A stretch of 63,358 nucleotides of DNA, counting the filler, from Thermodesulfobacteriota bacterium (GTDB taxonomy: Bacteria > DASVDK01): the NCBI GenBank assembly GCA_036381125.1. It is 7 parts of 7 records of this genome, joined end to end, with 100 filler letters (N's around TTAATTAATTAA, not from the genome) between each part and the next. Parts side by side here need not be neighbours in the genome. Positions count along the whole stretch, not along the records: positions 23,704 to 53,498 come from DASVDK010000036.1; 6 more parts are not named here. One strand, 5' to 3'. Made by a program: the position numbers and the translations under genes. The notes under the pieces were generated by a model that was not told the DNA's origin, did not search any database, and worked only from the letters and a program-made list of their open reading frames with translations. Positions 8,712 through 46,886 of this stretch are shown one piece after another (position 1 is the stretch's first letter; each line of letters starts with the position of its first letter).

Positions 8712-9547
8712 GCCCCGCCCTGCGCCGATTCGGCCGCCACCGCCTCGCCGTCGTGGGCCTCGTCTGCCTCGTGCTCGTCGTGGCCGCATCGGCGGCGGCG
8801 CCGCTCCTCACCCGCTACACGCCGACGCAGCAGTCCTTCACCCGGCGCCTGCAGGGCCCGTCCGCCGAGCACGTCCTCGGGACCGATCAGTTCGGCCGCG
8901 ACATCTACACGCGCGTCCTCTACGGCGGTCGGCTCTCGGTCCTCTTCGGCGTGGCGGCGGTCGCCATCGGGCTCGCCGCCGGCGGCAGCCTGGGCCTCGC
9001 GGCCGGATACTTCCCGCGGGTGGACGGGCCGGCCATGCGGGCGATGGACGTCCTGCTGTCGTTCCCGGCCGTGCTGCTGGCGATCATCGTCGTGGCGATC
9101 CTCGGGCCGGGCCTCGGCACGGTCATGCTCGCGGTCGGCGTCCGGCAGATCCCCGCGTACGCCCGCATGGTCCGGGGCGCGGTCCTCGTCGTGAAGGCGC
9201 TCCCCTATGCCGAGGCCGCGGTCGCCCTCGGCTCGACCCACTGGCGGACGATCCGCTCGACCATCGTCCCGAACTGCGTCGCGCCGGTCCTGGTCTTCTC
9301 GACGCTGCAGGTCGCCAACGCGATCCTGCTCGCATCCATCCTCTCCTTCCTCGGCCTCGGGGTGCAGCCGCCCGCGGCCGAGTGGGGGATCATGGTGAAC
9401 CAGGGCCGCGCCTTCCTGCGCGACGCCCCGCACGTCGCCATCGTGCCCGGCCTCGCGATCTTCCTCGTCGTCATGAGCTTCAACATGATCGGCGACGGGC
9501 TGCGCGACAGCCTCGACGTGCGGCTCAGGGACGGGAGCCACTCGTGA
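8708..9547 (+). CDS. Opp/Dpp ABC permease (DppC-like)
   Basis: ATGA overlap; LGTDQFGRD, EAAVALG, LSFLGLG..PP..EWG, GDGLRD. Confidence 0.92.
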   Translation: MSPALRRFGRHRLAVVGLVCLVLVVAASAAAPLLTRYTPTQQSFTRRLQGPSAEHVLGTDQFGRDIYTRVLYGGRLSVLFGVAAVAIGLAAGGSLGLAAGYFPRVDGPAMRAMDVLLSFPAVLLAIIVVAILGPGLGTVMLAVGVRQIPAYARMVRGAVLVVKALPYAEAAVALGSTHWRTIRSTIVPNCVAPVLVFSTLQVANAILLASILSFLGLGVQPPAAEWGIMVNQGRAFLRDAPHVAIVPGLAIFLVVMSFNMIGDGLRDSLDVRLRDGSHS

Positions 9548-10827
9548 AGCGACGCATCGTGGAAGAGGTGGACCGGCGGCGGGACGAGTTCGTCGCGCTC
9601 CTGTCCCGAGTGGTCCAGTTCGACACCGACAACCCGCCGTCGGACACGCGAGCGCTCGCCGCCTTCATGGCGGACTGGCTCGGGGCGCGCGGCATCGCCG
9701 CCGAGGTGATCATGCCGTACGAGCCCTACGCGAACGTCGTCGCGGCGCTCGGGCCGGTGGGCGCGACGCCCCACCTCACGCTGAACGGACACCTCGACCA
9801 GTTCCCGGCCGACGACCCGGCCCTCTGGCGCGACGGTCCATACTCCGGGGTCGTCCGCGACGGCAGGGTCTACGGCCGCGGCGTCTCCGACATGAAGGGC
9901 GGCACCACCGCCTCGCTCGTCGCCTTCGCGCTCGTGAAGGAGCTGGAGATCCCGCTGAGGGGCCGCCTGAGCTTCACCGGCGTCTCCGACGAGGAGACCG
10001 GCGGCGAGTACGGCACGCGCTGGATCCTCGCACACCACAAGGAGTACGTCGGCCAGGCGTGCCTCAACGGCGAGCCCTACGCGCCCGACGTGGTCGGCAT
10101 CGGCGAGCGCGGCACGTACCGGGTCATCCTCCGCACCGAGGGCGAGCCGATGCACGGCTCCCTCTCGTCGGGCGACAACTGCATCATGCGGATGGCCGAG
10201 GCCCTCCTCGCCCTTCGCCCGCTCGTCCGGGAGGAGTCCGACGTCCCGCGGGAGCTCGAGGCGATCGTCGAGCGGCAGAAGTCCTACACGCGCAGCCCCC
10301 AGGACGCCGGCAAGGGGTACCTCCTCGACCACCCCTCCTACAACGTCGGCGTCATCCGCGGCGGCACGAAGCTGAACGTCGTGCCCCGCGTCTGCGAGGC
10401 GGAGGTCGACATCCGGCTGCCGGTCGGGTTCACCGTCGCCCGCATGGACACCCTGGTCAGGCGGCTCCTGCGCGAGGCCGGCCGGTCGGACGTCACCGTG
10501 ACGCCGGCGCGCGAGACGACCGGCCGCGCGCCGGGTCGCCCCTCCGCGGAGCGCACCGGGGAGCCGACCTGGACGAGCCCCGACGAGCGGCTCGTCCGGA
10601 TCGTCAGGGCCAACGCCGCGGCGCTGATCGGCAAGGAGCCGCTCTACTACCTCGGCCTCGGCGCCACCGACGGGCGGCTCTTCCGCGCCCACGGGGTGCC
10701 GACCGTCATCTACGGGCCCCGCCCCTTCAACATGGGCGGCATCGACGAGCACATCGCCGTCGACGACTTCCTCACCGTCATCAAGGTTCACGCCCTGACC
10801 ATCGTGGACTACCTCGGACTCGCGTAA
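9544..10827 (+). CDS. M20 family metallopeptidase/deacylase (ArgE/DapE-like)
   Basis: NGHLD, YGRGVSDMKGG, DEETGG, NGEP motifs; GTGA overlap start. Confidence 0.88.
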   Translation: MKRRIVEEVDRRRDEFVALLSRVVQFDTDNPPSDTRALAAFMADWLGARGIAAEVIMPYEPYANVVAALGPVGATPHLTLNGHLDQFPADDPALWRDGPYSGVVRDGRVYGRGVSDMKGGTTASLVAFALVKELEIPLRGRLSFTGVSDEETGGEYGTRWILAHHKEYVGQACLNGEPYAPDVVGIGERGTYRVILRTEGEPMHGSLSSGDNCIMRMAEALLALRPLVREESDVPRELEAIVERQKSYTRSPQDAGKGYLLDHPSYNVGVIRGGTKLNVVPRVCEAEVDIRLPVGFTVARMDTLVRRLLREAGRSDVTVTPARETTGRAPGRPSAERTGEPTWTSPDERLVRIVRANAAALIGKEPLYYLGLGATDGRLFRAHGVPTVIYGPRPFNMGGIDEHIAVDDFLTVIKVHALTIVDYLGLA

Positions 10828-10838
10828 CGGAGACCCTC

Positions 10839-12086
10839 ATGGCCATCAAGGACCAGATCCTCGCCCGCGTCGACCCCGACGAGGTCATCCAGCTCGCCAG
10901 GGACCTCGTCAAGATCCCGAGCTTCACCACCGAGGAGACCGAGTGCGCCCGGTTCCTCCACGACCTCTTCCGCAAGGAGGGTCTCGAGTCCGAGCTCCAG
11001 GAGGTGGACCCCGGCCGCTTCCAGACCGTGGCGCGGCTCAGGGGCACCGGCGGCGGCAAGAGCCTCATGCTGAACGGCCACATCGACATCGACCCGATGG
11101 GCGCCGGCTGGCGGCGGGACCCCTTCACCGCCACCATCGAGGGCGACCGGATGTACGGCGCGGGGATCTTCAACATGAAGGGGGGCGTGACGTCGATGGT
11201 CATCGCCGCGCTCGCCGCGAAGCGGAGCGGCGTCCCGCTCCGGGGCGACGTCGTGGTCGCCTGCGTGGCCGGCGAGCTGCAGGGCGGCGTCGGGACGGTG
11301 CACCTGCTCGAGCGGGGGATCCGCACCGACTACGCCATCGTCCCCGAGCCCTACGACACGAAGAACATCATCACGAAGCACACCGGCGTGATGCAGATCC
11401 TCGTCCACGTGATCGGCCGCTCGGCTCACATCTCGCGCAAGGAGCAGGGGATCAACGCCATCGTCAAGATGGCGAAGGTCGTCGAGGCGCTCGAGAACGC
11501 CACGCTCCGCCACACGCACGACCCCGACCTCCCGGGCCTCCCGCGCCACCAGGTCGGCACCATCATCGGCGGCCGCGGCTACACGCCGGGGGGGCATTCG
11601 TACCGCGGCGTCGAGACGCGGGGCGCCAACATCGTGCCCGACGTCTGCACGATCTGGATCGACGTCCGCTTCAACCAGAGCATGACGCCCGAGAGCATCC
11701 TCGAGGACATCACCGCGGTGCTCGAGCAGACGAAGCGGGACGACCCCGACTTCCGCTACGAGATCGAGTTCCCGCCGGTCCCCGAGCGCAAGGCGAACCG
11801 CATCGTCATGCCGCCCATGTCGGTGCCGGTCACGGCGCACATCGTCCAGACCCTGAAGAAGAACGTCACCGCCGTCATCGGCGAGGAGCCGAACGTCGGG
11901 GCGGTCGCGCCCTTCAGCTACGCCGGCAACGACACCGCGCACCTCTACAACGCCGGCATCGAGTGCTGCCTCTACGGGCCGGTGGCCGGCTACACCACGG
12001 AGTTCCCCGACCGCTGGACCTCGGTGAAGCAGATGCAGGACTGCGCGAAGGCGCTCGCCGCCACCATCGCGGACATCTGCGCATGA
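10839..12086 (+). CDS. M20 family protein with divergent metal-site motifs
   Basis: GGGKSLMLNGHID, YGAGIFNMKGG, VAGELQGG, PEP, GRSAH. Confidence 0.85.
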   Translation: MAIKDQILARVDPDEVIQLARDLVKIPSFTTEETECARFLHDLFRKEGLESELQEVDPGRFQTVARLRGTGGGKSLMLNGHIDIDPMGAGWRRDPFTATIEGDRMYGAGIFNMKGGVTSMVIAALAAKRSGVPLRGDVVVACVAGELQGGVGTVHLLERGIRTDYAIVPEPYDTKNIITKHTGVMQILVHVIGRSAHISRKEQGINAIVKMAKVVEALENATLRHTHDPDLPGLPRHQVGTIIGGRGYTPGGHSYRGVETRGANIVPDVCTIWIDVRFNQSMTPESILEDITAVLEQTKRDDPDFRYEIEFPPVPERKANRIVMPPMSVPVTAHIVQTLKKNVTAVIGEEPNVGAVAPFSYAGNDTAHLYNAGIECCLYGPVAGYTTEFPDRWTSVKQMQDCAKALAATIADICA

Positions 12087-12114
12087 CGGGCAGAGCCGGC
12101 CTGCCGCCGCGACC

Positions 12115-39239: not shown

Positions 39240-39569
39240 ATGGATCGGGTCCTGAGGTCGATCGGGCTCTTCCTGGTGGCCGGGCTCTGCGAGATCGGCG
39301 GCGGCTACCTCGTCTGGCAGTGGTGGCGAAACGGCGCCTCCGCGGTCGTCGGCGCGCTGGGGGCCGTGGTGCTCGTGCTCTACGGCATCGTGCCGACCTA
39401 CCAGCCGGCCGGCTTCGGCCGCGTCTACGCGGCGTACGGCGGGTGGTTCGTCGTGCTCTCGGTCCTCTGGGGCGCCGTGGTCGACGGGGTTCGGCCGGAC
39501 CGCTACGACCTCCTCGGGGCGGCGGTCTGCCTCGCCGGGGTCGCGATCATCATGTACGCGCCCCGTTGA
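39240..39569 (+). CDS. YnfA/UPF0060 small membrane protein
   Basis: [28 protein letters not shown]. Confidence 0.92.
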
Positions 39570-39630
39570 GGCACCCGTCACGCCTCCCCCTCACCGCGCC
39601 GGATCGGACGGCGCGGGGCGGCGCCCGGAG

Positions 39631-40413
39631 TCAGTACGGGACGTTCACGGTGAGGCGGAAGGCCTGGGCCCCGTCGCCGGTCTGCCAGGTGTGGACGAGG
39701 TCGACCCTGACGCGGTCGTGCAGCGGCAGCCCGAGGCTCGACTCGAGGCGGTCGCGCGTGACGCTGTAGGCGACGCGCGTGCGGAGCGGCTCGCGCACGA
39801 CCTGCACGGCCGGCTCGAGCCGCGTGACGCCGATGCGGACGCCGACGCGGACCGACACGCCGCCCGGGAGGGTTCGAGGCACGACCTTGCGCGGGACCGG
39901 CGGCGGCGCGGGGGCCTCGGGCGTCAGGTCCCCGGGCTCCTCGGCGTCGACCGGCCGGCCGAAGAACTCCTCGAGGCGGCGCGCCTCCTCGAAGCGCGCG
40001 ATCTCCACGAAGAGGGGCGAGGCGCGAAGGACCTGGTCGAGCGCCGCGTCGGCCAGCTCGCGCCCCTGCTCGTACGCGAGCTCCTCCTTGAGGGCGGCGA
40101 GCCGCTCGCGCCCGAGCCGATCGGCGACCGGCTCGTCCTCGAAGAAGGCGTCCGGGCTCAGGTACTGCTGCCGGTACCGGAGGGCGAGGTCGGCGTCGAC
40201 GGGGGGCGGCCGGCGGAGCAGGGCGAAGAGGCCGCCCGGCTCGGGCGGCGCAAGGCGCCAGGTGTCGGCCAGCTCCGAGTCCGCGGCCGCGGGCGCGGCG
40301 ACGAGCGCCGCGACGATCAGGGCCGCGGCGAGAGCCGCCGCGGAGGCGAGCGGCCACGTCGCCAGCCGGCACCGCCGGCCGGGGCGGGCCGCAGGCTCGC
40401 AGCCGACGCGCAT
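39631..40413 (-). CDS. Hypothetical exported protein with C-terminal beta-strand region
   Basis: Hydrophobic signal-like segment, C-terminal FRLTVNVPY; start uncertain. Confidence 0.55.
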   Translation of the reverse strand: MRVGCEPAARPGRRCRLATWPLASAAALAAALIVAALVAAPAAADSELADTWRLAPPEPGGLFALLRRPPPVDADLALRYRQQYLSPDAFFEDEPVADRLGRERLAALKEELAYEQGRELADAALDQVLRASPLFVEIARFEEARRLEEFFGRPVDAEEPGDLTPEAPAPPPVPRKVVPRTLPGGVSVRVGVRIGVTRLEPAVQVVREPLRTRVAYSVTRDRLESSLGLPLHDRVRVDLVHTWQTGDGAQAFRLTVNVPY

Positions 40414-40494
40414 GCGCCCAGGTACGCCAGGGCTCGGACCGGAGTCAAGCACAAAGGGGACGTTGCGGACGTCGGCTGCGCCGCGGGACCCGGT

Positions 40495-40902
40495 TCAGAG
40501 GGCCGGCCGGCTTCCGCGGCGATGCCGCTCCGTCATCGCGCAGCCGCTCACCACCGTGGCGCCGACGGCCCGGGCCCGCTCGAGGGTCTCCGGCGTCGCC
40601 GACCCGGGCTGGAACCAGAGGCGGGTGATGCCGAGCGCGAGCGCCTCCTCGACCACGCGCGCGGTCACCTCCGGGGGGGTGACGAAGTCGACCACGTCCG
40701 GACGCTCCGGGAGGCTCGCGAGGGTCGGCCAGGCGGGGTCCCCCTCGACCTGCGTCGCGTTCGGGTTGACGGCCATGACCCGGTAGCCCCCCGCGCGCAG
40801 GTCGAAGTAGACCATGTTGCCGAACTTGCTCCGGTCCTTGCTGGCGCCGACGATCGCCCAGGTGGGGCGGGCGAGGCAGTCGGCCACGGCGTCGTCGCTC
40901 AC
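40495..40902 (-). CDS. CoA-binding protein (YccU-like)
   Basis: WAIVGAS, AVNP, PDVVDFVTPP, LWFQPG. Confidence 0.9.
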   Translation of the reverse strand: MSDDAVADCLARPTWAIVGASKDRSKFGNMVYFDLRAGGYRVMAVNPNATQVEGDPAWPTLASLPERPDVVDFVTPPEVTARVVEEALALGITRLWFQPGSATPETLERARAVGATVVSGCAMTERHRRGSRPAL

Positions 40903-41429
40903 GGCTGCCCGACGACCTCGACCCTCTGCATGACGTCGCCGACCCTGATCTGCCGGACGACGTCCATCCCCTCGACGACCTGGCCGAAGACGGTGTACTT
41001 GCCGTCGAGGAAGGGCTGCGGCCCGAGGCAGATGTAGAACTGGCTGCCGGCCGAATCGGGGTGCTGCGCCCGCGCCATCGCCACGGTGCCGTCGAGGTGC
41101 TTGCGGCTGTTGAACTCCGCCTTGAGCGTGTAGCCCGGGCCGCCGGTGCCGTCCCCCTTCGGGTCGCCGCCCTGGACGACGAAGCCGGGGACCACGCGGT
41201 GGAACTTGAGGCCGTTGTAGAAGCCCTTCCTGGTGAGCGAGAGAAAGCTCTCGACGGTCTTTGGCGCGTCGCCGGGGTAGAGCTCGATCACGAACGCGCC
41301 CCCCTTGGCCATGGTGATCTTCACCCTGGGGTTCGCCTGGGCCGCATCGGCCATGTCGGCGCCTCCGAAGACGAGGGTTGAGAGGGCGAGGAGGGCCAGC
41401 GCGGCCCGCCTCGTCGTGCGTGCGGTCAT
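40899..41429 (-). CDS. Cyclophilin-type peptidyl-prolyl isomerase
   Basis: APKTV, FHRVVPGFVVQGGDP, AMAR...DSAGSQFYI, YTVFGQV. Confidence 0.95.
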   Translation of the reverse strand: MTARTTRRAALALLALSTLVFGGADMADAAQANPRVKITMAKGGAFVIELYPGDAPKTVESFLSLTRKGFYNGLKFHRVVPGFVVQGGDPKGDGTGGPGYTLKAEFNSRKHLDGTVAMARAQHPDSAGSQFYICLGPQPFLDGKYTVFGQVVEGMDVVRQIRVGDVMQRVEVVGQP

Positions 41430-41439
41430 ACGGTCCTCC

Positions 41440-42198
41440 CTAGAACAGCTCGAGCCGCTTGAACGCCTCGGCGTACCCCGACGCCACCCGCCCCTGCCTC
41501 GCCGCATCGACCGCGCGCTGGCGGATCCGCTCGGGCCAGTTCGGCAGCCGCTGCACCTGGCTCTCGTGACGGGCGATGGCCGCGATCTTGCGCTCGATCG
41601 TCTCGGCCACGTCGACGAACAGGTCGGGCTCGTCGGCCGACCAGAGGTAGACCAGCGTCGTCTCGTGCGGCTCGTGGCCGGCGACGAGCTGCTCGGGCTG
41701 GAAGAGGTGGTCGCGGGCCGCCACCAGGCCGTCGAGCGTGGCCTGCCCGATGGCGCGGTGGTCCGGGTGGATCATGTACCGCTTCCAGGGGTCGTGCGTG
41801 AGGATCACGTCCGGCCGGAACCGCCGGATGAGGAGCGAGCACTCGGCGCGCAGGGCCAGCGTCGGCTCGAGCGTGCCGTCGCCGTGCCGCAGGAAGTGCA
41901 CCTCGCGCACGCCGAGCGTCTCGGCCGCGCTCCGCTGCTCCCGCTCGCGCCGCTCGGCGAGCCCGTACGGCGACACGGTCCGGTCCTTCGAGCCGCGGCT
42001 TCCGTCGGTGGCCACCACGTAGATCACCTCGGCCCCGCGGGCCGCGAAGCGGGCGATGGTGCCGCCGGCGCCGAACTCGGCGTCGTCGGGGTGGGCCGCG
42101 ACGACGAGCGCCCGCCTCGGCACGAAGTCGGCCGGGGTGGTCGCCGGCTCGTCCCCGATGGGGATCCCCTTGGTCGTCATGCCGGCCGCCGCCTCCAC
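41440..42198 (-). CDS. PIG-L family deacetylase (MshB/BshB-like)
   Basis: AHPDDAE, ATDG..G, RxxE, HPDH, HESQ; start may be 42180. Confidence 0.9.
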   Translation of the reverse strand: MEAAAGMTTKGIPIGDEPATTPADFVPRRALVVAAHPDDAEFGAGGTIARFAARGAEVIYVVATDGSRGSKDRTVSPYGLAERREREQRSAAETLGVREVHFLRHGDGTLEPTLALRAECSLLIRRFRPDVILTHDPWKRYMIHPDHRAIGQATLDGLVAARDHLFQPEQLVAGHEPHETTLVYLWSADEPDLFVDVAETIERKIAAIARHESQVQRLPNWPERIRQRAVDAARQGRVASGYAEAFKRLELF

Positions 42199-43439
42199 CG
42201 GCTCTCGCCGACCGCCGTCGACCCGAGCGCGACCAGGCCCTCGTACAGCGTCCGGATGCGCGCCGCCACCGACGACCAGCCGTAGCCGATCACGGCCGAC
42301 CGGGCCCGCGAGCGAATCCGCGCCGTGAGGTCCGCGTCGGCGAAGAGCCGCGCGAGCGCGCGCGCGAGGGCGCCCGCGTCGCCCGGCGGCACGATCAGCC
42401 CGTTCACACCGTCCTCGACCAGGTCGGGCACGACGCCGACCGGCGTCGCGACCAGCGCCGCTCCCGAGGCGAGCGCCTCGAGCGCCACCAGGTTGAACGA
42501 CTCGTAGGCCGAGGGGACGACCACCGCGGCGGCGGCGGCGTAGTAGTCGGCCAGCACCGCCCGCGGCTCGGGCCCCCGGAACTCGACGCGGCCGGCGATG
42601 CCGAGGTCGGCGGCCAGCCGGCCGAGCCGCGCCGCCTCGCCCCCCGCGTCCCCCTCGGCCCCGTCGCCCCCCACGACGACGAGCCGGATCCGCGGGTCGT
42701 CGAGCCGCGCCACCGCCTCGACGAGCCGGTCGACCCCCTTCAACGGCTCGAGACGGCCCACGTAGACGACCGGCCTCACCCCCTCGAGGCCGAGCCGGCG
42801 GCGCGCCGCCTCGGGCTCGCGCGGCGCGAACGCCGCCAGGTCGACGCCGCAGGGGACGACCGCCACGCGGTCCTCCCTCGCGCGGAGCGTCCCGACCAGC
42901 TCGCGCGCCTCGGCGGCGGTGGCGGCCACGAGGCGGCAGGCGACGCGGGCCAGCAGGGACTCGCTCCGCAGGCGGGCCGGCTCGGCCCGCTCGGCCGCGG
43001 CGGCCGCCCAGCGGGTCTTGAGGTGTCCCAGGGTGTGGAACATCTGGACGAGCGGGACCCCGAACCGGCGAGCGAGGTCGATGCCGGCCCGCCCCGCGAG
43101 CCAGTAGTGCGCGTGCACGAGGTCGTAGGGCCCCGCGTCGCGGGCGAAGGCGTCGACGCGCGCCGCGAACTCCCCCGTGTACGCCTCGAGCTGGCCCTTG
43201 GGGAGCGCCGCCCGCGGCCCGGCCTTGACGTGGACGAGCCTCGCGAGCGGCCCGATCGGCCTGATCGCCGGCAGCGCGCAGCCGTGGTCGCGGGTGAACA
43301 CGTCCACCCCCACCCCCTGCCGCCCGAGAGCCGCCGCCAGCTCGCGCACGTACACGTTCATCCCGCCCGCCGAGCCGGCCCCGGGGGGCACGAGCGGACA
43401 GGTGTGGTAGGCCAGCATCGCGACCCGCGTCGAAGTCAC
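42177..43439 (-). CDS. MshA-like GT4 glycosyltransferase
   Basis: RVAMLAYHTCPL..PG.GSAGGMNVYV, DLVHAHYWLAG, FHTLG..K, GRLEPLKG, ESFNLVALEA. Confidence 0.88.
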   Translation of the reverse strand: MTSTRVAMLAYHTCPLVPPGAGSAGGMNVYVRELAAALGRQGVGVDVFTRDHGCALPAIRPIGPLARLVHVKAGPRAALPKGQLEAYTGEFAARVDAFARDAGPYDLVHAHYWLAGRAGIDLARRFGVPLVQMFHTLGHLKTRWAAAAAERAEPARLRSESLLARVACRLVAATAAEARELVGTLRAREDRVAVVPCGVDLAAFAPREPEAARRRLGLEGVRPVVYVGRLEPLKGVDRLVEAVARLDDPRIRLVVVGGDGAEGDAGGEAARLGRLAADLGIAGRVEFRGPEPRAVLADYYAAAAAVVVPSAYESFNLVALEALASGAALVATPVGVVPDLVEDGVNGLIVPPGDAGALARALARLFADADLTARIRSRARSAVIGYGWSSVAARIRTLYEGLVALGSTAVGESRWRRRPA

Positions 43440-44491
43440 CGCCCTCCCCTCTCGATCGTCAAGCGACGGACCACCCGATCGCGTCCGCCGAGGTCGTACT
43501 TGTAGCGTTCGGTGCCCCGGAGGAAGTCGAAGACCCGCACGCCTCGCCGGCAGGCCGCCTCGATGCAGCGCGCGAGGAGCACCAGGCCGGGCGAGAGCCG
43601 CGCCGTCGACGGGTCGTACCCCGAGTTGTAGAGGTACCAGCCCCCCCGGTAGTCGAACAGGCACATCGCGGCGAGCGGCCGGTCGTCCGCGTCCGCCAGC
43701 CGCGCGATCACCAGCTCGTCGCGCTCGGCGATCCCGGCCGCCATGTCGCGGAAGAACGCCTCCATGGCCGGCGTCATGAACCGCGCCTTCTCGGCGCCCG
43801 AGCGTCGGTGGAGCGCGATGAACTCCGGCAGGGCCGCCACCGCCTCGTCCCGCCTCAGCAGGCGCACCGAGGCCCCCGGCGCCTCCCGCTCGAACCGGCG
43901 CACCTTCCGGCGCAGCTCGTGCCGCGCCTCCCGACCGAGCCCCGCGAGGTAGGCGTCGTAGTCGGCCGGCAGCGCGATCACCGGGCTGCGCGCCTGCTCC
44001 TCGACCGACAGCGCGAGGCCGGCCCGCGCGAGGGCGGCCCCGGCCACGGCGAGCGTCGGCGAGTCGTCGGGGACGTTGTCGAGGACCGCCCGGGCCACGT
44101 CCGCCTGCTCGGCGAGCCACGCCGAGAGCCGCTCCCACGCCTCGGCCTCCCGCCCGGCGAGCGCCAGGATATCGAGGTAATCGGCCACGTCGACCGGCCC
44201 GTCCGGCGCGCCCACGAGGCGGAGCACGCCCCGGTCCTCGAAGAAGGGGGCAAGGGCGACCGGCGGTTCCCCCTCGCCGTGCGCCGTCGCCGACGGCGGT
44301 GGGAGGACGGCCACCCGGAGAGGACGGCCCCCGCCGAAGTGCCGCCACCAGGCGCGTTGCCAGGGAGGAGCGAGAAAAATCGAGGAGTTGCCGCTACCGG
44401 CCTCGACGGCTCGCCAGATGGCGTCGAGCGCCGCGAGCGCGTCGACACCCGGCCGGCCCGCCGGACAGCCGGCCGCGAGGTCGATCGGCAT
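43436..44491 (-). CDS. CelD/BcsL-like GNAT (Acetyltransf_6) protein
   Basis: FL.P.W..AWW.HF, DYLDIL, R.ELRRK.RR, YNSGYDP, SPG.VL, FDFLRG.ERYKY. Confidence 0.88.
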   Translation of the reverse strand: MPIDLAAGCPAGRPGVDALAALDAIWRAVEAGSGNSSIFLAPPWQRAWWRHFGGGRPLRVAVLPPPSATAHGEGEPPVALAPFFEDRGVLRLVGAPDGPVDVADYLDILALAGREAEAWERLSAWLAEQADVARAVLDNVPDDSPTLAVAGAALARAGLALSVEEQARSPVIALPADYDAYLAGLGREARHELRRKVRRFEREAPGASVRLLRRDEAVAALPEFIALHRRSGAEKARFMTPAMEAFFRDMAAGIAERDELVIARLADADDRPLAAMCLFDYRGGWYLYNSGYDPSTARLSPGLVLLARCIEAACRRGVRVFDFLRGTERYKYDLGGRDRVVRRLTIERGGR

Positions 44492-44548
44492 GTCGCGATT
44501 GTAGCAAGAGGGGTCTCGCGCGCCCCGCGAGGCGGCCGCGGACGCCGC

Positions 44549-44800
44549 CTATCGGACCCGCGTATCGAGCGCCGCGAGCAGCAGGGCGGCAAAGCCGAGG
44601 AGGAGGAACGCGACGCCGCGCATCCCGGCCGGCTCGACGGCGACGGCCGCCCGCACCGGGACCGGGCGCGGGGCGCGATGGTGGACGACGACGTGGACGG
44701 CCGCCGGCGTGCGCCGCTGCGGCTCGAAGCGGACATCGGTCGGGCAGGCGCCTGCCGGACAGGTGCAACGACTGAAGACGACGGGGTTCCAACGGGCCAT
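44549..44800 (-). CDS. Possible small protein with Cys cluster and C-terminal TM segment
   Basis: GGAGG RBS before ATG; CTCPAGAC; hydrophobic VAFLLLGFAALLLAAL. No family recognised. Confidence 0.35.
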   Translation of the reverse strand: MARWNPVVFSRCTCPAGACPTDVRFEPQRRTPAAVHVVVHHRAPRPVPVRAAVAVEPAGMRGVAFLLLGFAALLLAALDTRVR

Positions 44801-44895
44801 TCGGCGGCCTCCGGGTCCGGGCGGGCAGCCGCCCGGATCGAGGCTCTACTTACCCCAGAGGCCGCCGACGAGGCAAGGGCTTTCTGTGAGTGACG

Positions 44896-45519
44896 CTACA
44901 CCCGCTTGAGCCGTTCCACGAGCCGCCACCCGGATGCCAGCAGGCCGGCCGCCAGGACGAGCTTCAGCACGTCGCCCGGCAGGAACGGCCAGAGCCCCTT
45001 GGCGAGGAGCGTCCCGAGCGGCATCGGCTGCCAGAGCCAGAGGCCGATCAGGCCGAGCGCGTAGATCGGCAGGCTCGCCAGCAGCATGGCGGCGATGCCG
45101 CGGCCGAAGCGGCGGTCCCACCCGGCCTCCGCGAGCCGGCCCATGAGCCAGGCGGAGACCGCGAAGCCGACGAGGTAGCCGGCGGTCGGTCCGAGGAACC
45201 GCTCGGCGCCCGCCGCCCCGCCCGGCTGGAACACCGGCAGGCCGACGGCGCCGGCCACGAGGTAGCCGAGGAGGGCGATGAGCCCCAGGCGCGCGCCGAG
45301 GATGCCCCCGGTGAGCCGTACCGCGAACGTCTGCCCGGTGATCGGCACCGGCGTGAAGGGGAGCGGGATGGCCACCTGGGCGAAGAGCGCGTTGACGCCG
45401 ATGAAGCCGGCGACGAGGAGCGCGTCGCGCAAGGCCCCCGCCTTCGGGCAGGCCACGTCGGCGAGCGTGAGCGGTGGACGCGTACCGAGGAGATCGACCG
45501 GGCTGGTCGCCATGTGCAT
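44896..45519 (-). CDS. bioY: Biotin ECF transporter substrate component
   Basis: PFTPVPITGQTFAV, GLPVF, GPTAGYLVGF, PFLPGD.LK. Confidence 0.92.
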   Translation of the reverse strand: MHMATSPVDLLGTRPPLTLADVACPKAGALRDALLVAGFIGVNALFAQVAIPLPFTPVPITGQTFAVRLTGGILGARLGLIALLGYLVAGAVGLPVFQPGGAAGAERFLGPTAGYLVGFAVSAWLMGRLAEAGWDRRFGRGIAAMLLASLPIYALGLIGLWLWQPMPLGTLLAKGLWPFLPGDVLKLVLAAGLLASGWRLVERLKRV

Positions 45520-45641
45520 GCCTCCGAATGGATGACGATCGTGGGACGCGAACGGACGCCGGAAGGATAGCTCGACAGAGTTTGGGCCCGTGTTTTAATA
45601 TTCTGATCACGGCTCCCCTGACGACTTCCGAGGAGGATCCC

Positions 45642-46886
45642 ATGCGACGTCTCCCGCTGCTCCTGGCCACCGCGCTCTTCGCCTGGGCGAGCCTGCCCGG
45701 CGCGGCGTCGGCCCAGGTGAAGATCGGCTTCCTCGCACCCCTCACCGGCCCCCAGGCCGAGGCCGGCATCGCGCTGCGACAGGGCGCGCTGCTCGCCGTG
45801 GAGGAGATCAACGCCGCGGGCGGCGTCGCGATCGGCGGCAAGAAGCAGAAGCTCGAGCTCCTCGTCGAGGACACGACCTCGAAGCCCGACGTCGGCGTGG
45901 CGCTCGGCGAGAAGCTCATCACGAGCGACAAGGTCCACATCCTCGTGGGCGACTCCTACGCCAGCTCGGTCACCATGGCGGTCATGGAGCTGGCCCCGAA
46001 GTACGGCATCCCCATCTACTCCATCGAGCCGGTCTCCGGGGCGATCGCCGACAAGGTGGCCGCGAACCCCGAGCGGTACGCCACCTACTGGAAGGGGGAC
46101 TTCAACTCCGACGCGTACGCCAGGACCGTCTTCCAGACGGCGATGGACCTCGTGAAGGAGGGCAAGTTCACGCCGCGGACGAAGACGGTCGCCTTCGTCG
46201 TCGAGGACACCGACTACGGCCGCTCGAACGCGAGCGACGCCGGCCGGCTCTTCACCGAGGTCGGCTGGAAGGTCGTGGCGACCGAGACGGTGCCGCTCGG
46301 CTACACCGACTTCTACCCGCAGTTCGGCAAGGTGCGCGGGCTTGCGCCCGACGTCGTCGTGAGCTGCTTCACGAGCAACTCGTCCGGCATCGCGTTCGCC
46401 AAGCAGTACGTCGAGCAGGGCGTCTCGGCGCTGCACCTCGCCATCTACTACCCGACGCGGTCGGAGTTCATCCCGCAGGCCGGCAAGGCGGCGGAGGGGA
46501 TCCTCTGGACGCCGCTCCTCTTCGACCCGGAGAACATCAAGGCGCAGGTCGCCTTCGCGAAGGCGATCCAGGAGAGGTTCCTCAAGGGCACCACGTCGAA
46601 GCCGAACAGCGACAACGCGTACGGCTACGACGGCATCATGAACATCGCCGACGTGCTCACGCGGGCCGGCTCGCTCGACCCGAAGAAGATCTCCGACGCC
46701 TTCGCGACGCTCGACCGCCGGGGGCTCCTCGGCCGCTACAAGTTCGACCCGAAGAACCACACCGTCATGGCGGGGCCGGAGTACATCCCGGTGCCGACCG
46801 CGCAGATCCAGAACGGCAGGAACGTCATCGTCTGGCCGGCGACGGTCAAGGCTGGCGAGTACCAGACGCAGCCCTGGACGCGGTAG
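45642..46886 (+). CDS. Branched-chain (Liv-type) ABC substrate-binding protein
   Basis: RBS GAGGAGG, signal peptide, KIGFLAPLTG, AVEEINAAGG, EDTDYG, YGYDG. Confidence 0.92.
   Translation: MRRLPLLLATALFAWASLPGAASAQVKIGFLAPLTGPQAEAGIALRQGALLAVEEINAAGGVAIGGKKQKLELLVEDTTSKPDVGVALGEKLITSDKVHILVGDSYASSVTMAVMELAPKYGIPIYSIEPVSGAIADKVAANPERYATYWKGDFNSDAYARTVFQTAMDLVKEGKFTPRTKTVAFVVEDTDYGRSNASDAGRLFTEVGWKVVATETVPLGYTDFYPQFGKVRGLAPDVVVSCFTSNSSGIAFAKQYVEQGVSALHLAIYYPTRSEFIPQAGKAAEGILWTPLLFDPENIKAQVAFAKAIQERFLKGTTSKPNSDNAYGYDGIMNIADVLTRAGSLDPKKISDAFATLDRRGLLGRYKFDPKNHTVMAGPEYIPVPTAQIQNGRNVIVWPATVKAGEYQTQPWTR

Follow-up and report, generated by a model that had tools for sequence, protein, structure and literature searches.

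Can a mycothiol-type pathway run without the cysteine ligase MshC, and in a bacterium that is not an actinobacterium? In the textbook view, only Actinobacteria have the thiol mycothiol, and MshA-D make it. The question is raised by a locus of a Thermodesulfobacteriota bacterium (assembly GCA_036381125.1), a rare soil bacterium whose phylum has 2 species in the genome library. We analyzed a stretch of 63,358 nucleotides, hereafter the window, which consists of several contigs joined by N and includes contig C36 of this 4.33-Mb metagenome-assembled genome (MAG; 382 contigs, 96% complete). This contig carries an operon for a double GCN5-related N-acetyltransferase (GNAT), a family 4 glycosyltransferase (GT4), a PIG-L deacetylase, a cyclophilin, and a coenzyme A (CoA)-binding protein. 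A first description made from the DNA alone, the sequence-only reading, had suggested that these genes make a new aminosugar conjugate, possibly a low-molecular-weight thiol. We found support for the aminosugar pathway; its product is probably of the mycothiol type and not wholly new. The assignment of the three core genes to the glycosylation, deacetylation, and N-acylation of glucosamine (GlcN) is well supported by their families, context, and distribution. We further propose, tentatively, that the operon encodes a soluble cytoplasmic mycothiol-type pathway in which a Fem-type GNAT stands in the place of MshC and probably uses Cys-tRNA.

The GT4 had been described as MshA-like, and this description holds. 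It matched the MshA model TIGR03449 with 323.2 bits over model positions 1-402 of 406, and MshA was its best family by about 210 bits, as the next families reached at most 111 bits. Four other assignments were rejected on their scores: BshA-type enzyme (85 bits, cut-off 274), sucrose-phosphate synthase (TIGR02472, 84 bits vs 323 on MshA, cut-off 576), exopolysaccharide (EPS) or lipopolysaccharide (LPS) transferase (EPS models about 200 bits or more below MshA, LPS transferases at 64 bits), and GlcN-phosphatidylglycerol synthase (83 bits). The motifs YHTCPLVPPGAGSAGGMNVYV and HAHYWLAG, quoted earlier as MshA signatures, are present in the protein and align with their counterparts in Corynebacterium glutamicum MshA (CgMshA). 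We built a tree of 54 rows chosen from 103 usable sequences, after 8 loci with short or interrupted matches had been dropped. The window GT4 fell inside a 51-row MshA clade (SH-aLRT 99) that also contains actinobacterial MshAs scoring above the cut-off (475-667 bits). A grouping with sucrose-phosphate or LPS transferases, which would have spoken against the sequence-only reading, was not seen. The three rows outside this clade were a paralogue from contig C285 of the same genome and two other paralogues. On these sequence comparisons, the window GT4 can be regarded as an MshA orthologue in the broad sense. MshA was also the best family of five other GNAT-linked GT4s and of the unlinked C285 paralogue. 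The latter (locus L002, 1399-2730, minus strand) scored 264 bits on MshA and 125 on sucrose-phosphate synthase, formed its own clade with paralogues of two Actinomycetota genomes, and carries Phe in place of Y112 and Ala in place of T136.

The residues of the active site point in the same direction. K81, Y112, T136, R156, R229, and E321 of the GT4 align with K78, Y110, T134, R154, R231, and E324 of CgMshA, the first four of which we take to be the binders of the phosphate of inositol phosphate. Y112, T136, R156, R229, and E321 were invariant in 103 of 103 GT4 relatives, and the K81 position holds L or M in 18 of 83 orthologues. One position departs from the family: at codon 316 (42492-42494) the EX7E motif reads ESFN instead of ESFG. 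The other loci have glycine here without exception (102 of 102), as do 111 of 121 relatives from the database. Asn316 occurs only in the window GT4 and its six closest relatives (70-92% identity), and is thus a lineage trait rather than a sequence error. In the passages of PMC2628429 that deal with these sites, R231 and E324 of CgMshA bind uridine diphosphate (UDP), and the equivalent of position 316, G356 of Mycobacterium tuberculosis MshA, is the site of an inactivating mutation.

The second core protein, PIG-L, matched PF02585 with 120 bits (cut-off 28) and remained under the cut-offs of the equivalog models, i.e., 107 bits on BshB1 (182.5), its best NCBIfam match, 53 on Mca (277), and 49 on MshB (224).

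To assess the conservation of the cluster, we examined 80 genome loci among the more than 1200 relatives of the GNAT. These loci come from Dehalococcoidia/SAR202, Chloroflexia, Rokubacteria/Methylomirabilota/NC10, Deferrimicrobiaceae, Actinomycetota, and one Patescibacteria MAG. The GNAT and GT4 are co-conserved: the GT4 gene directly follows the GNAT gene in 79 of the 80 loci, across at least five phyla, and a PIG-L gene lies within 7 kb in 26. These PIG-L orthologues are 37-50% identical, and others are found in loci L115 and L118. Clustering of the open reading frames (ORFs) over the 80 loci gave only two universal families, GNAT (79 loci) and GT4 (78 loci). The gene order is ino1-GNAT-GT4-PIG-L in the NC10 locus L026, CoA-binding-GNAT-GT4-PIG-L in the Chloroflexota locus L118, and GNAT-PIG-L without GT4 in L115, while L083 has a two-domain GNAT between the GT4 and PIG-L genes (79 bits on MshD, under the cut-off of 163). 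Neither the cyclophilin nor the CoA-binding gene was found in any of the 80 related loci, which corrects the sequence-only reading: the two genes do not belong to the conserved module. The cyclophilin, linked in the sister species G006 (95% identity), is a co-transcribed passenger outside the conserved module. The CoA-binding protein is also outside this module, since its linkage is confined to the genus (94% identity in G006) and to L118, where its gene (45%) is directly upstream of the GNAT gene.

Several lineages have their own variants of this neighborhood. In about 10 loci, mainly of the Deferrimicrobiaceae group, the adjoining GT4 is only about 30% identical; in L012, L014, L018, L024, and L030 of this group it scored 149 bits on MshA with a branch length of 1.5, and its acceptor or donor may differ. 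The neighbors folE, DUF502, thrC, and the serine hydroxymethyltransferase gene reflect Dehalococcoidia synteny. The Dehalococcoidia loci L016, L027, L035, and L083 (about 9200-12100) have a DUF502 membrane protein after the GT4 and a CpsB/CapC-type PHP phosphoesterase after the PIG-L, the latter being a candidate for the phosphatase step (MshA2). In Rokubacteria/Methylomirabilota, a small Zn_ribbon_8 (FmdB-type) gene is just upstream of the GNAT gene in L020 and L041 and was not found in L039, and all three loci have genes of an Opp/Dpp-type peptide ABC importer 3' of the GT4 gene.

These neighborhoods bear on the idea that the genes modify a cell-envelope polysaccharide, which the automatic JGI name of the GNAT homologues (CelD/BcsL, cellulose biosynthesis) implies and to which the weak matches of the GNAT and GT4 to PEP-CTERM FemAB and EPS glycosyltransferase models might be added. 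No polysaccharide export, polymerase, or lipid-carrier genes were found in the operon or in the conserved neighborhoods, the EPS models score far below MshA on the GT4, and the module is found both in lineages that have LpxC and in lineages that do not. Nothing else points to a polysaccharide role, and we regard this idea as highly improbable.

We then searched for the other genes of thiol pathways in this genome and in five others that carry the GNAT-GT4 pair (two Actinomycetota MAGs, one Dehalococcoidia, one Rokubacteria, and one NC10). Among ino1, mshC, bshC, and gshB, the window's genome has ino1, and no MshC, BshC, or GshB over the cut-offs. BshC gave 0 matches, and the best match to the MshC model was the genome's only CysS-family gene, which scored 264 bits and is truncated at the end of a contig. 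The lack of MshC and BshC, noted earlier for the cluster itself, therefore extends to the whole MAG, although with a genome that is 96% complete it is likely rather than proven. We found no MshD at E <= 1e-10 either, and no Mca besides the cluster's own PIG-L. The other five genomes resemble it: ino1 is present in all of them (6/6 with this one), the GNAT-linked GT4 is the best MshA match in each, and neither MshC nor BshC was found over the curated cut-offs. In four of them, all but G002, neither MshD (E <= 1e-10) nor GshB (cut-off) was found. A complete LpxC was found in the Rokubacteria and NC10 genomes and no match in the Actinomycetota and Dehalococcoidia ones, and the window's genome has a contig-end fragment (42 bits, cut-off 27). 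Hence, lineages with LpxC and lineages without it both carry the module. The host had been called a diderm, for which this fragment is the only support, and the module is not special to diderms.

The presence of ino1 is relevant to the acceptor of the GT4. This could instead be another phosphorylated polyol or sugar, or phosphatidylinositol, in which case the product would be a GlcN-lipid resembling glycosylphosphatidylinositol (GPI), or another conjugate that is acylated later. GPI anchor synthesis begins with a GT4 step followed by a PIG-L step, and the two enzymes of the operon match this order. The GT4 score under the MshA cut-off, the L or M at the K81 position, the 11 GNAT-positive Chloroflexota without an ino1 match, and the DUF502 membrane proteins that adjoin in Dehalococcoidia would also fit. 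However, the three core proteins are soluble, with no membrane segments in their translations, and the GT4 is nested among bona fide MshAs in the tree. Moreover, ino1 adjoins the pair in the NC10 locus and is present in all six pair-bearing genomes, and at least four of the 11 ino1-negative cases are paralogous GNATs without an adjoining GT4, or fragmented MAGs. A different acceptor thus seems improbable to us.

What reaction could the GNAT catalyze? It matched PF13480 with 111.9 bits (cut-off 22) over residues 188-331, and 18 of 18 family members also match this domain. The other Pfam links are weak (FemAB_like in 11 of the 18 members, FemAB in 2, LPG_synthase_C in 1), and the best NCBIfam match, the crotonyl transferase BspF, reached only 28 bits. 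A profile of the family found nothing better than E 0.38 among the PDB sequences. The fold was more informative. In a Foldseek search with the AlphaFold2 model of the GNAT (predicted local distance difference test score 91.4), every top match of known function was an aminoacyl-tRNA-dependent enzyme. The top 23 rows of VIA-align (Z 16.9-22.0, root-mean-square deviation (rmsd) 3.3-4.0 Å) were all aminoacyl-tRNA transferases except 2hqy (Z 18.3), a protein of unknown function placed amid the MprF-type rows. They comprised FemX and FemA (Z 20.9-22.0, 3.8-4.0 Å), Sbb17 and Sba18 (Z 20.3-20.5, 3.3-3.4 Å), and MprF-type domains (Z 16.9-18.4, about 3.5 Å). The best match was FemX (6snr, Z 22.0, 3.8 Å, 291 aligned residues). 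For comparison, the acyl-CoA tandem GNATs, including MshD, gave Z 14-16 and an rmsd of 5-8 Å. R190, H191, R195, K196, R198, R199, and the Y330-K331 dyad are invariant in the 18 aligned family members. Parts of PMC12945691 describe, for this group, a basic helix on domain 2 that binds tRNA, and a catalytic lysine that follows an aromatic residue (FemX Lys305, DhpH-C Phe328-Lys329). Judging from position and this description, the R190-R199 helix and the Y330-K331 dyad of the GNAT resemble the tRNA helix and Lys305 of FemX. An aminoacyl-tRNA donor is supported by the fold of the model, and we consider it probable.

The other donor suggested by the family is an acyl-CoA. The GNAT would then be an N-acyltransferase following the deacetylate-reacylate logic of LpxC/LpxD, and the product an N-acyl-GlcN-inositol with a non-acetyl acyl group. 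The protein does belong to a Pfam family of GNAT acetyltransferases, with BspF as best NCBIfam match, tandem acyl-CoA GNATs including MshD still match its fold (Z 14-15), and a CoA_binding_2 gene accompanies the core genes in this operon as well as in the sister species and L118. But this gene is missing from 80 of 80 other loci, the proteins of known function among the 23 best structural matches are all aminoacyl-tRNA transferases with a clearly lower rmsd, and the invariant features of the GNAT, its basic helix and its aromatic-Lys dyad, are in keeping with a tRNA-dependent enzyme. The distribution described next, complementary to that of MshC, would also be left unexplained. We consider this option rather unlikely.

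What the GNAT replaces is indicated by a sample of Actinomycetota. We searched 41 genomes with a completeness of 90% or more, among them the unpublished G208 and G225, which belong to the GNAT type. Of the 41, 25 carry an MshA-type gene (E <= 1e-60), and in 23 it scored at least 316 bits. The GNAT (at least 165 bits) is present in 17 of the 41, with two further genomes having weak, paralogue-like matches, and 8 have, besides a lower-scoring CysS, an MshC-like gene of at least 369 bits. No genome has both. The 23 genomes whose MshA-type gene reaches 316 bits divide into 16 with the GNAT alone and 7 with the MshC-like gene alone, and none has both or neither (Fisher p 4e-6; 0.013 for all 41; uncorrected for relatedness). 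We extracted 24 MshA-type loci with 1.5-kb flanks and found the GNAT gene directly upstream in 13; in two of these 13 the GT4 passes the MshA cut-off, with 509 and 489.5 bits, and in two the gene order is GNAT-GT4-PIG-L. In the Actinomycetota clade of the tree, the MshC-type rows are found at two to four separate places amid GNAT-type rows. The GNAT-type genomes retain genes of enzymes that are specific for mycothiol, all scoring above curated cut-offs: Mca in nine, MshD in four, and the mycothiol-dependent formaldehyde dehydrogenase in one (G215, which also has Mca and MshD). Of the 17, 11 have just one CysS-family gene, and Mca is present in six of these. Given the adjacency, the MshA clade, the Fem fold, the exclusivity with MshC, and the retained Mca and MshD, the GNAT most likely replaces MshC, and its donor is probably Cys-tRNA. 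The earlier proposal that the GNAT performs the (amino)acylation is thereby strengthened by its Fem-like fold and complementary distribution, while the chemistry is our inference.

This pattern in Actinomycetota backs cysteine as the amino acid; for the window's organism we would put cysteine at close to an even chance. The enzyme could instead transfer Gly, Ala, Ser, or another residue and yield a non-thiol aminoacyl-GlcN-inositol, e.g., a compatible solute or a precursor. Its fold indeed matches enzymes that use Gly-, Ala-, and Lys-tRNA, this genome has neither MshD nor Mca, and in Chloroflexota the GNAT is unassociated with Mca-like genes. Three facts argue for cysteine instead: in Actinomycetota the GNAT is exactly complementary to MshC, which is a cysteine ligase; Mca, MshD, and the mycothiol-dependent dehydrogenase are retained in GNAT-type genomes; and the pair-bearing genomes tested lack the glutathione and bacillithiol routes. 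Transfer of another amino acid is in our view unlikely, if somewhat less so than the use of an acyl-CoA.

In the pathway that we propose, the GT4 would likely use UDP-GlcNAc to attach N-acetylglucosamine (GlcNAc) to a phosphorylated acceptor, for which 1L-myo-inositol-1-phosphate from Ino1 is the most likely candidate, and a phosphatase encoded elsewhere would strip the phosphate. The PIG-L, an MshB-like de-N-acetylase, would very likely remove the N-acetyl group and free the GlcN amine, which the double-GNAT would quite likely acylate, in the role that the ATP-dependent ligase MshC has in actinomycetes. Its donor would probably be an aminoacyl-tRNA, most likely Cys-tRNA(Cys). Since we found no MshD in this genome, its pathway would end with Cys-GlcN-Ins (desacetyl-mycothiol) or a compound closely related to it, and this product would act as the cell's low-molecular-weight thiol. 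The genes are translationally coupled, probably on a leaderless transcript, with the cyclophilin and CoA-binding genes riding along.

Several observations weigh against this pathway. With neither MshD nor Mca, nothing in the genome points specifically to a thiol; we infer the donor, the amino acid, and the acceptor, and the thiol has no direct support within this genome. The GT4 lies below the MshA equivalog cut-off (323 vs 462.5 bits), and in a search of PDB sequences the sucrose-phosphate synthase of Thermosynechococcus (TeSPS, 6KIH) was nearly as close as CgMshA (3C48; 213 vs 224 bits), with BshA structures at 50. According to passages of PMC7264703, sucrose-phosphate synthase holds its phosphate with equivalent arginines; the phosphate-binding residues, being common to both enzymes, thus indicate a phosphorylated acceptor and not its identity. 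The GT4 also has Asn316 at the position of M. tuberculosis G356. Regarding the GNAT, the equivalence of K331 with FemX Lys305 is tentative, and the linkage of the CoA-binding gene in two lineages hints at an acyl-CoA donor. The genomes that we counted are related, and hence the statistics overstate their independence. Finally, 6 of the 17 GNAT-type Actinomycetota (G210, G215, G217, G230, G232, and G247), for which the claim is thereby weakened, have a second CysS-family gene that also scores in the CysS range (197-255 bits) and may be a dedicated cysteinyl-tRNA synthetase (CysRS) feeding the Fem-type enzyme, as in other Fem/MprF systems, or a divergent ligase.

Two further points of this kind come from 201 Chloroflexota genomes (G187, G044, and G168 are unpublished). 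There, ino1 is not associated with the GNAT (71 of 82 GNAT-positive vs 112 of 119 negative genomes), although this co-occurrence test has no power, as 183 of the 201 have ino1. Nor are Mca-like genes tied to orthologue-grade GNATs (12 of 40 vs 46 of 161). They are found in 58 of the 201 at E <= 1e-55: G019 and G044, both without a Fem-type GNAT, have Mca above the curated cut-off, and the 56 others have full-length sub-threshold matches. This suggests that mycothiol-like conjugate amidases are common in Chloroflexota whatever the ligase. Besides, the lower-scoring GNATs of G093, G075, G170, and G048 (29-33% identity) have no adjoining MshA-type GT4. We treated them as a paralogous subfamily, and hence the raw GNAT counts in Chloroflexota mix two kinds.

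How does the proposed pathway compare with known systems? Genes of mycothiol synthesis are scattered in actinomycetes, unlike the clustered and overlapping genes found here. The logic is the same as in that pathway (Ino1, MshA, the MshA2 phosphatase, MshB, MshC, and MshD), i.e., glycosylation, deacetylation, and acylation of the amine, with an MshA-clade GT4, a PIG-L/LmbE deacetylase as MshB, and Ino1. The differences are that a Fem-type double-GNAT takes the slot of MshC, that MshD and Mca are lacking, that both the GT4 and the PIG-L are under the equivalog cut-offs, and that the host, not an actinobacterium, probably makes LPS. Bacillithiol synthesis (BshA, BshB, BshC) shares the three-step logic, the PIG-L scores best on BshB1, and a product whose cysteine amine is left free would be similar to bacillithiol; however, the GT4 is far from BshA and the genome has no BshC. 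Sucrose-phosphate synthase has the same GT4 fold and a similar site for a phosphorylated acceptor, but the GT4 of the operon is much closer to MshA and is partnered with an N-deacetylase, which is sensible only for an N-acetyl-hexosamine donor.

For the GNAT, close relatives in fold are FemX/FemA and MprF, with which it shares the whole double-GNAT fold (Z 17-22); its basic helix at the start of domain 2 and its aromatic-Lys dyad near the C-terminus resemble features described for FemX. It has no significant sequence match to any solved structure, and its context favors a soluble amino sugar as acceptor over a peptidoglycan precursor or a lipid. Orf11/Sbb17 of the BD-12 streptothricin-type pathway, among the best fold matches (9wqw, 9wqx, and 9wqy), offers a parallel for the chemistry. 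According to parts of PMC12945691, Sbb17, which is Orf11, carries out the Gly-tRNA-dependent aminoacylation of the amino-sugar amine of streptothrisamine. Both proteins are double-GNATs of the Fem-like type, and Sbb17 forms an amide on an amino-sugar amine, as we propose for the GNAT. They are only 14-15% identical, and Sbb17 serves Streptomyces secondary metabolism with glycine, whereas the GNAT is part of a widely conserved module resembling primary metabolism.

The genes of the operon are listed below. The five coupled minus-strand genes span 40495-44491, and the coordinates and Pfam matches bear out the overlapping arrangement first described.

Table. Genes and putative promoter element of the operon (window positions; aa, amino acids)
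Feature	Coordinates	Strand	Support
Acetyltransf_6 double-GNAT, 351 aa	43436-44491	-	PF13480 E 3.6e-32
MshA-type GT4, 420 aa, GTG start behind a purine-rich stretch	42177-43439	-	GT4 domains E 1e-35 and 4e-26
PIG-L/LmbE deacetylase, 252 aa, alternative ATG at 42180	41440-42198	-	PF02585 E 1e-34
Cyclophilin-type peptidyl-prolyl isomerase, signal-like N-terminus, likely start 41429	40899-41507	-	PF00160 E 2e-47
CoA_binding_2 protein, 135 aa	40495-40902	-	PF13380 E 3e-33
Extended -10-like element TGCTACAAT	44498-44506	-	direct sequence reading

From these coordinates, the end of the GNAT gene and the start of the GT4 gene share GTGA, as do the genes at the cyclophilin/CoA-binding junction, and the GT4 and PIG-L genes overlap by 22 nucleotides, or by ATGA if PIG-L begins at its alternative ATG. 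The internal genes have overlapping stop and start codons, and no Shine-Dalgarno sequence precedes the GNAT gene. The extended -10 proposed earlier is present there, ending 6 nucleotides 5' of the GNAT ATG; a consensus promoter and terminator scan of 40300-45000 returned 0 sites, with a promoter model that also requires a -35. Such a short distance implies a leaderless mRNA, from which the operon may be read if this putative promoter is used. An Rfam scan of 39500-46000 gave 0 matches.

The flanks are unrelated, with bioY upstream and, downstream, a 273-aa protein followed by YnfA, EamA, and MgsA on the opposite strand. The 273-aa protein (39631-40452, minus strand), directly 3' of the operon on the same strand, has a signal-like N-terminus and no Pfam family. 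The 400-nucleotide gap between bioY and the GNAT gene has an ORF of 83-99 aa (44549-44845, minus strand) with coding-like GC content at third codon positions, a hydrophobic C-terminal segment, and no Pfam family. The order GT4-PIG-L-cyclophilin-CoA-binding is kept in the sister species G006 at 75-97% identity; the apparent absence of the GNAT there is no real evidence, because its 1813-nucleotide contig stops inside the GT4 gene. Among sequencing runs, a mangrove DNA contig of 6306 nucleotides spans the whole operon at about 95% identity. Short contigs from a compost RNA library (90-97% identity) touch the GNAT gene and the GT4/PIG-L and cyclophilin/CoA-binding junctions; since assembled contigs reveal neither transcription, strand, nor start, they bear neither on expression nor on the leaderless start.

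In the literature search, which had subscription journals and supplements outside its scope, we found no paper on a Fem-type or tRNA-dependent step in mycothiol-like synthesis, and the word mycothiol is absent from the main text of the Binatota paper. A tRNA-dependent route to a mycothiol-type compound is thus apparently undescribed. Passages of PMC2922099 treat MshC as tRNA-independent and set the Fem-type ligases apart from it, and a passage of PMC4255298 gives the mycothiol pathway as absent from non-actinomycete actinobacteria except Acidimicrobium.

A broader proposal, which we advance with more reserve than the pathway itself, is that the GNAT is a Cys-tRNA(Cys):GlcN-inositol cysteinyl transferase, that tRNA-dependent mycothiol-type thiols occur in at least five phyla, and that MshC is a later replacement in some actinomycetes. 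The lineages concerned might be deep Actinomycetota, Chloroflexota, Methylomirabilota/Rokubacteria, relatives of Deferrimicrobiaceae, and the rare LPS-bearing phylum of the window. If this is true, primary metabolism would employ aminoacyl-tRNA in a new way, and the CysRS paralogue MshC would be the later replacement of an older tRNA-dependent step, limited to some actinomycete lineages. Mycothiol-type thiols would also be made by very abundant lineages of soil, groundwater, and the sea that have no known redox buffer. Mycothiol would then cease to be a speciality of Actinobacteria, and a name could be put to the unidentified thiol of many abundant bacteria that are uncultured.

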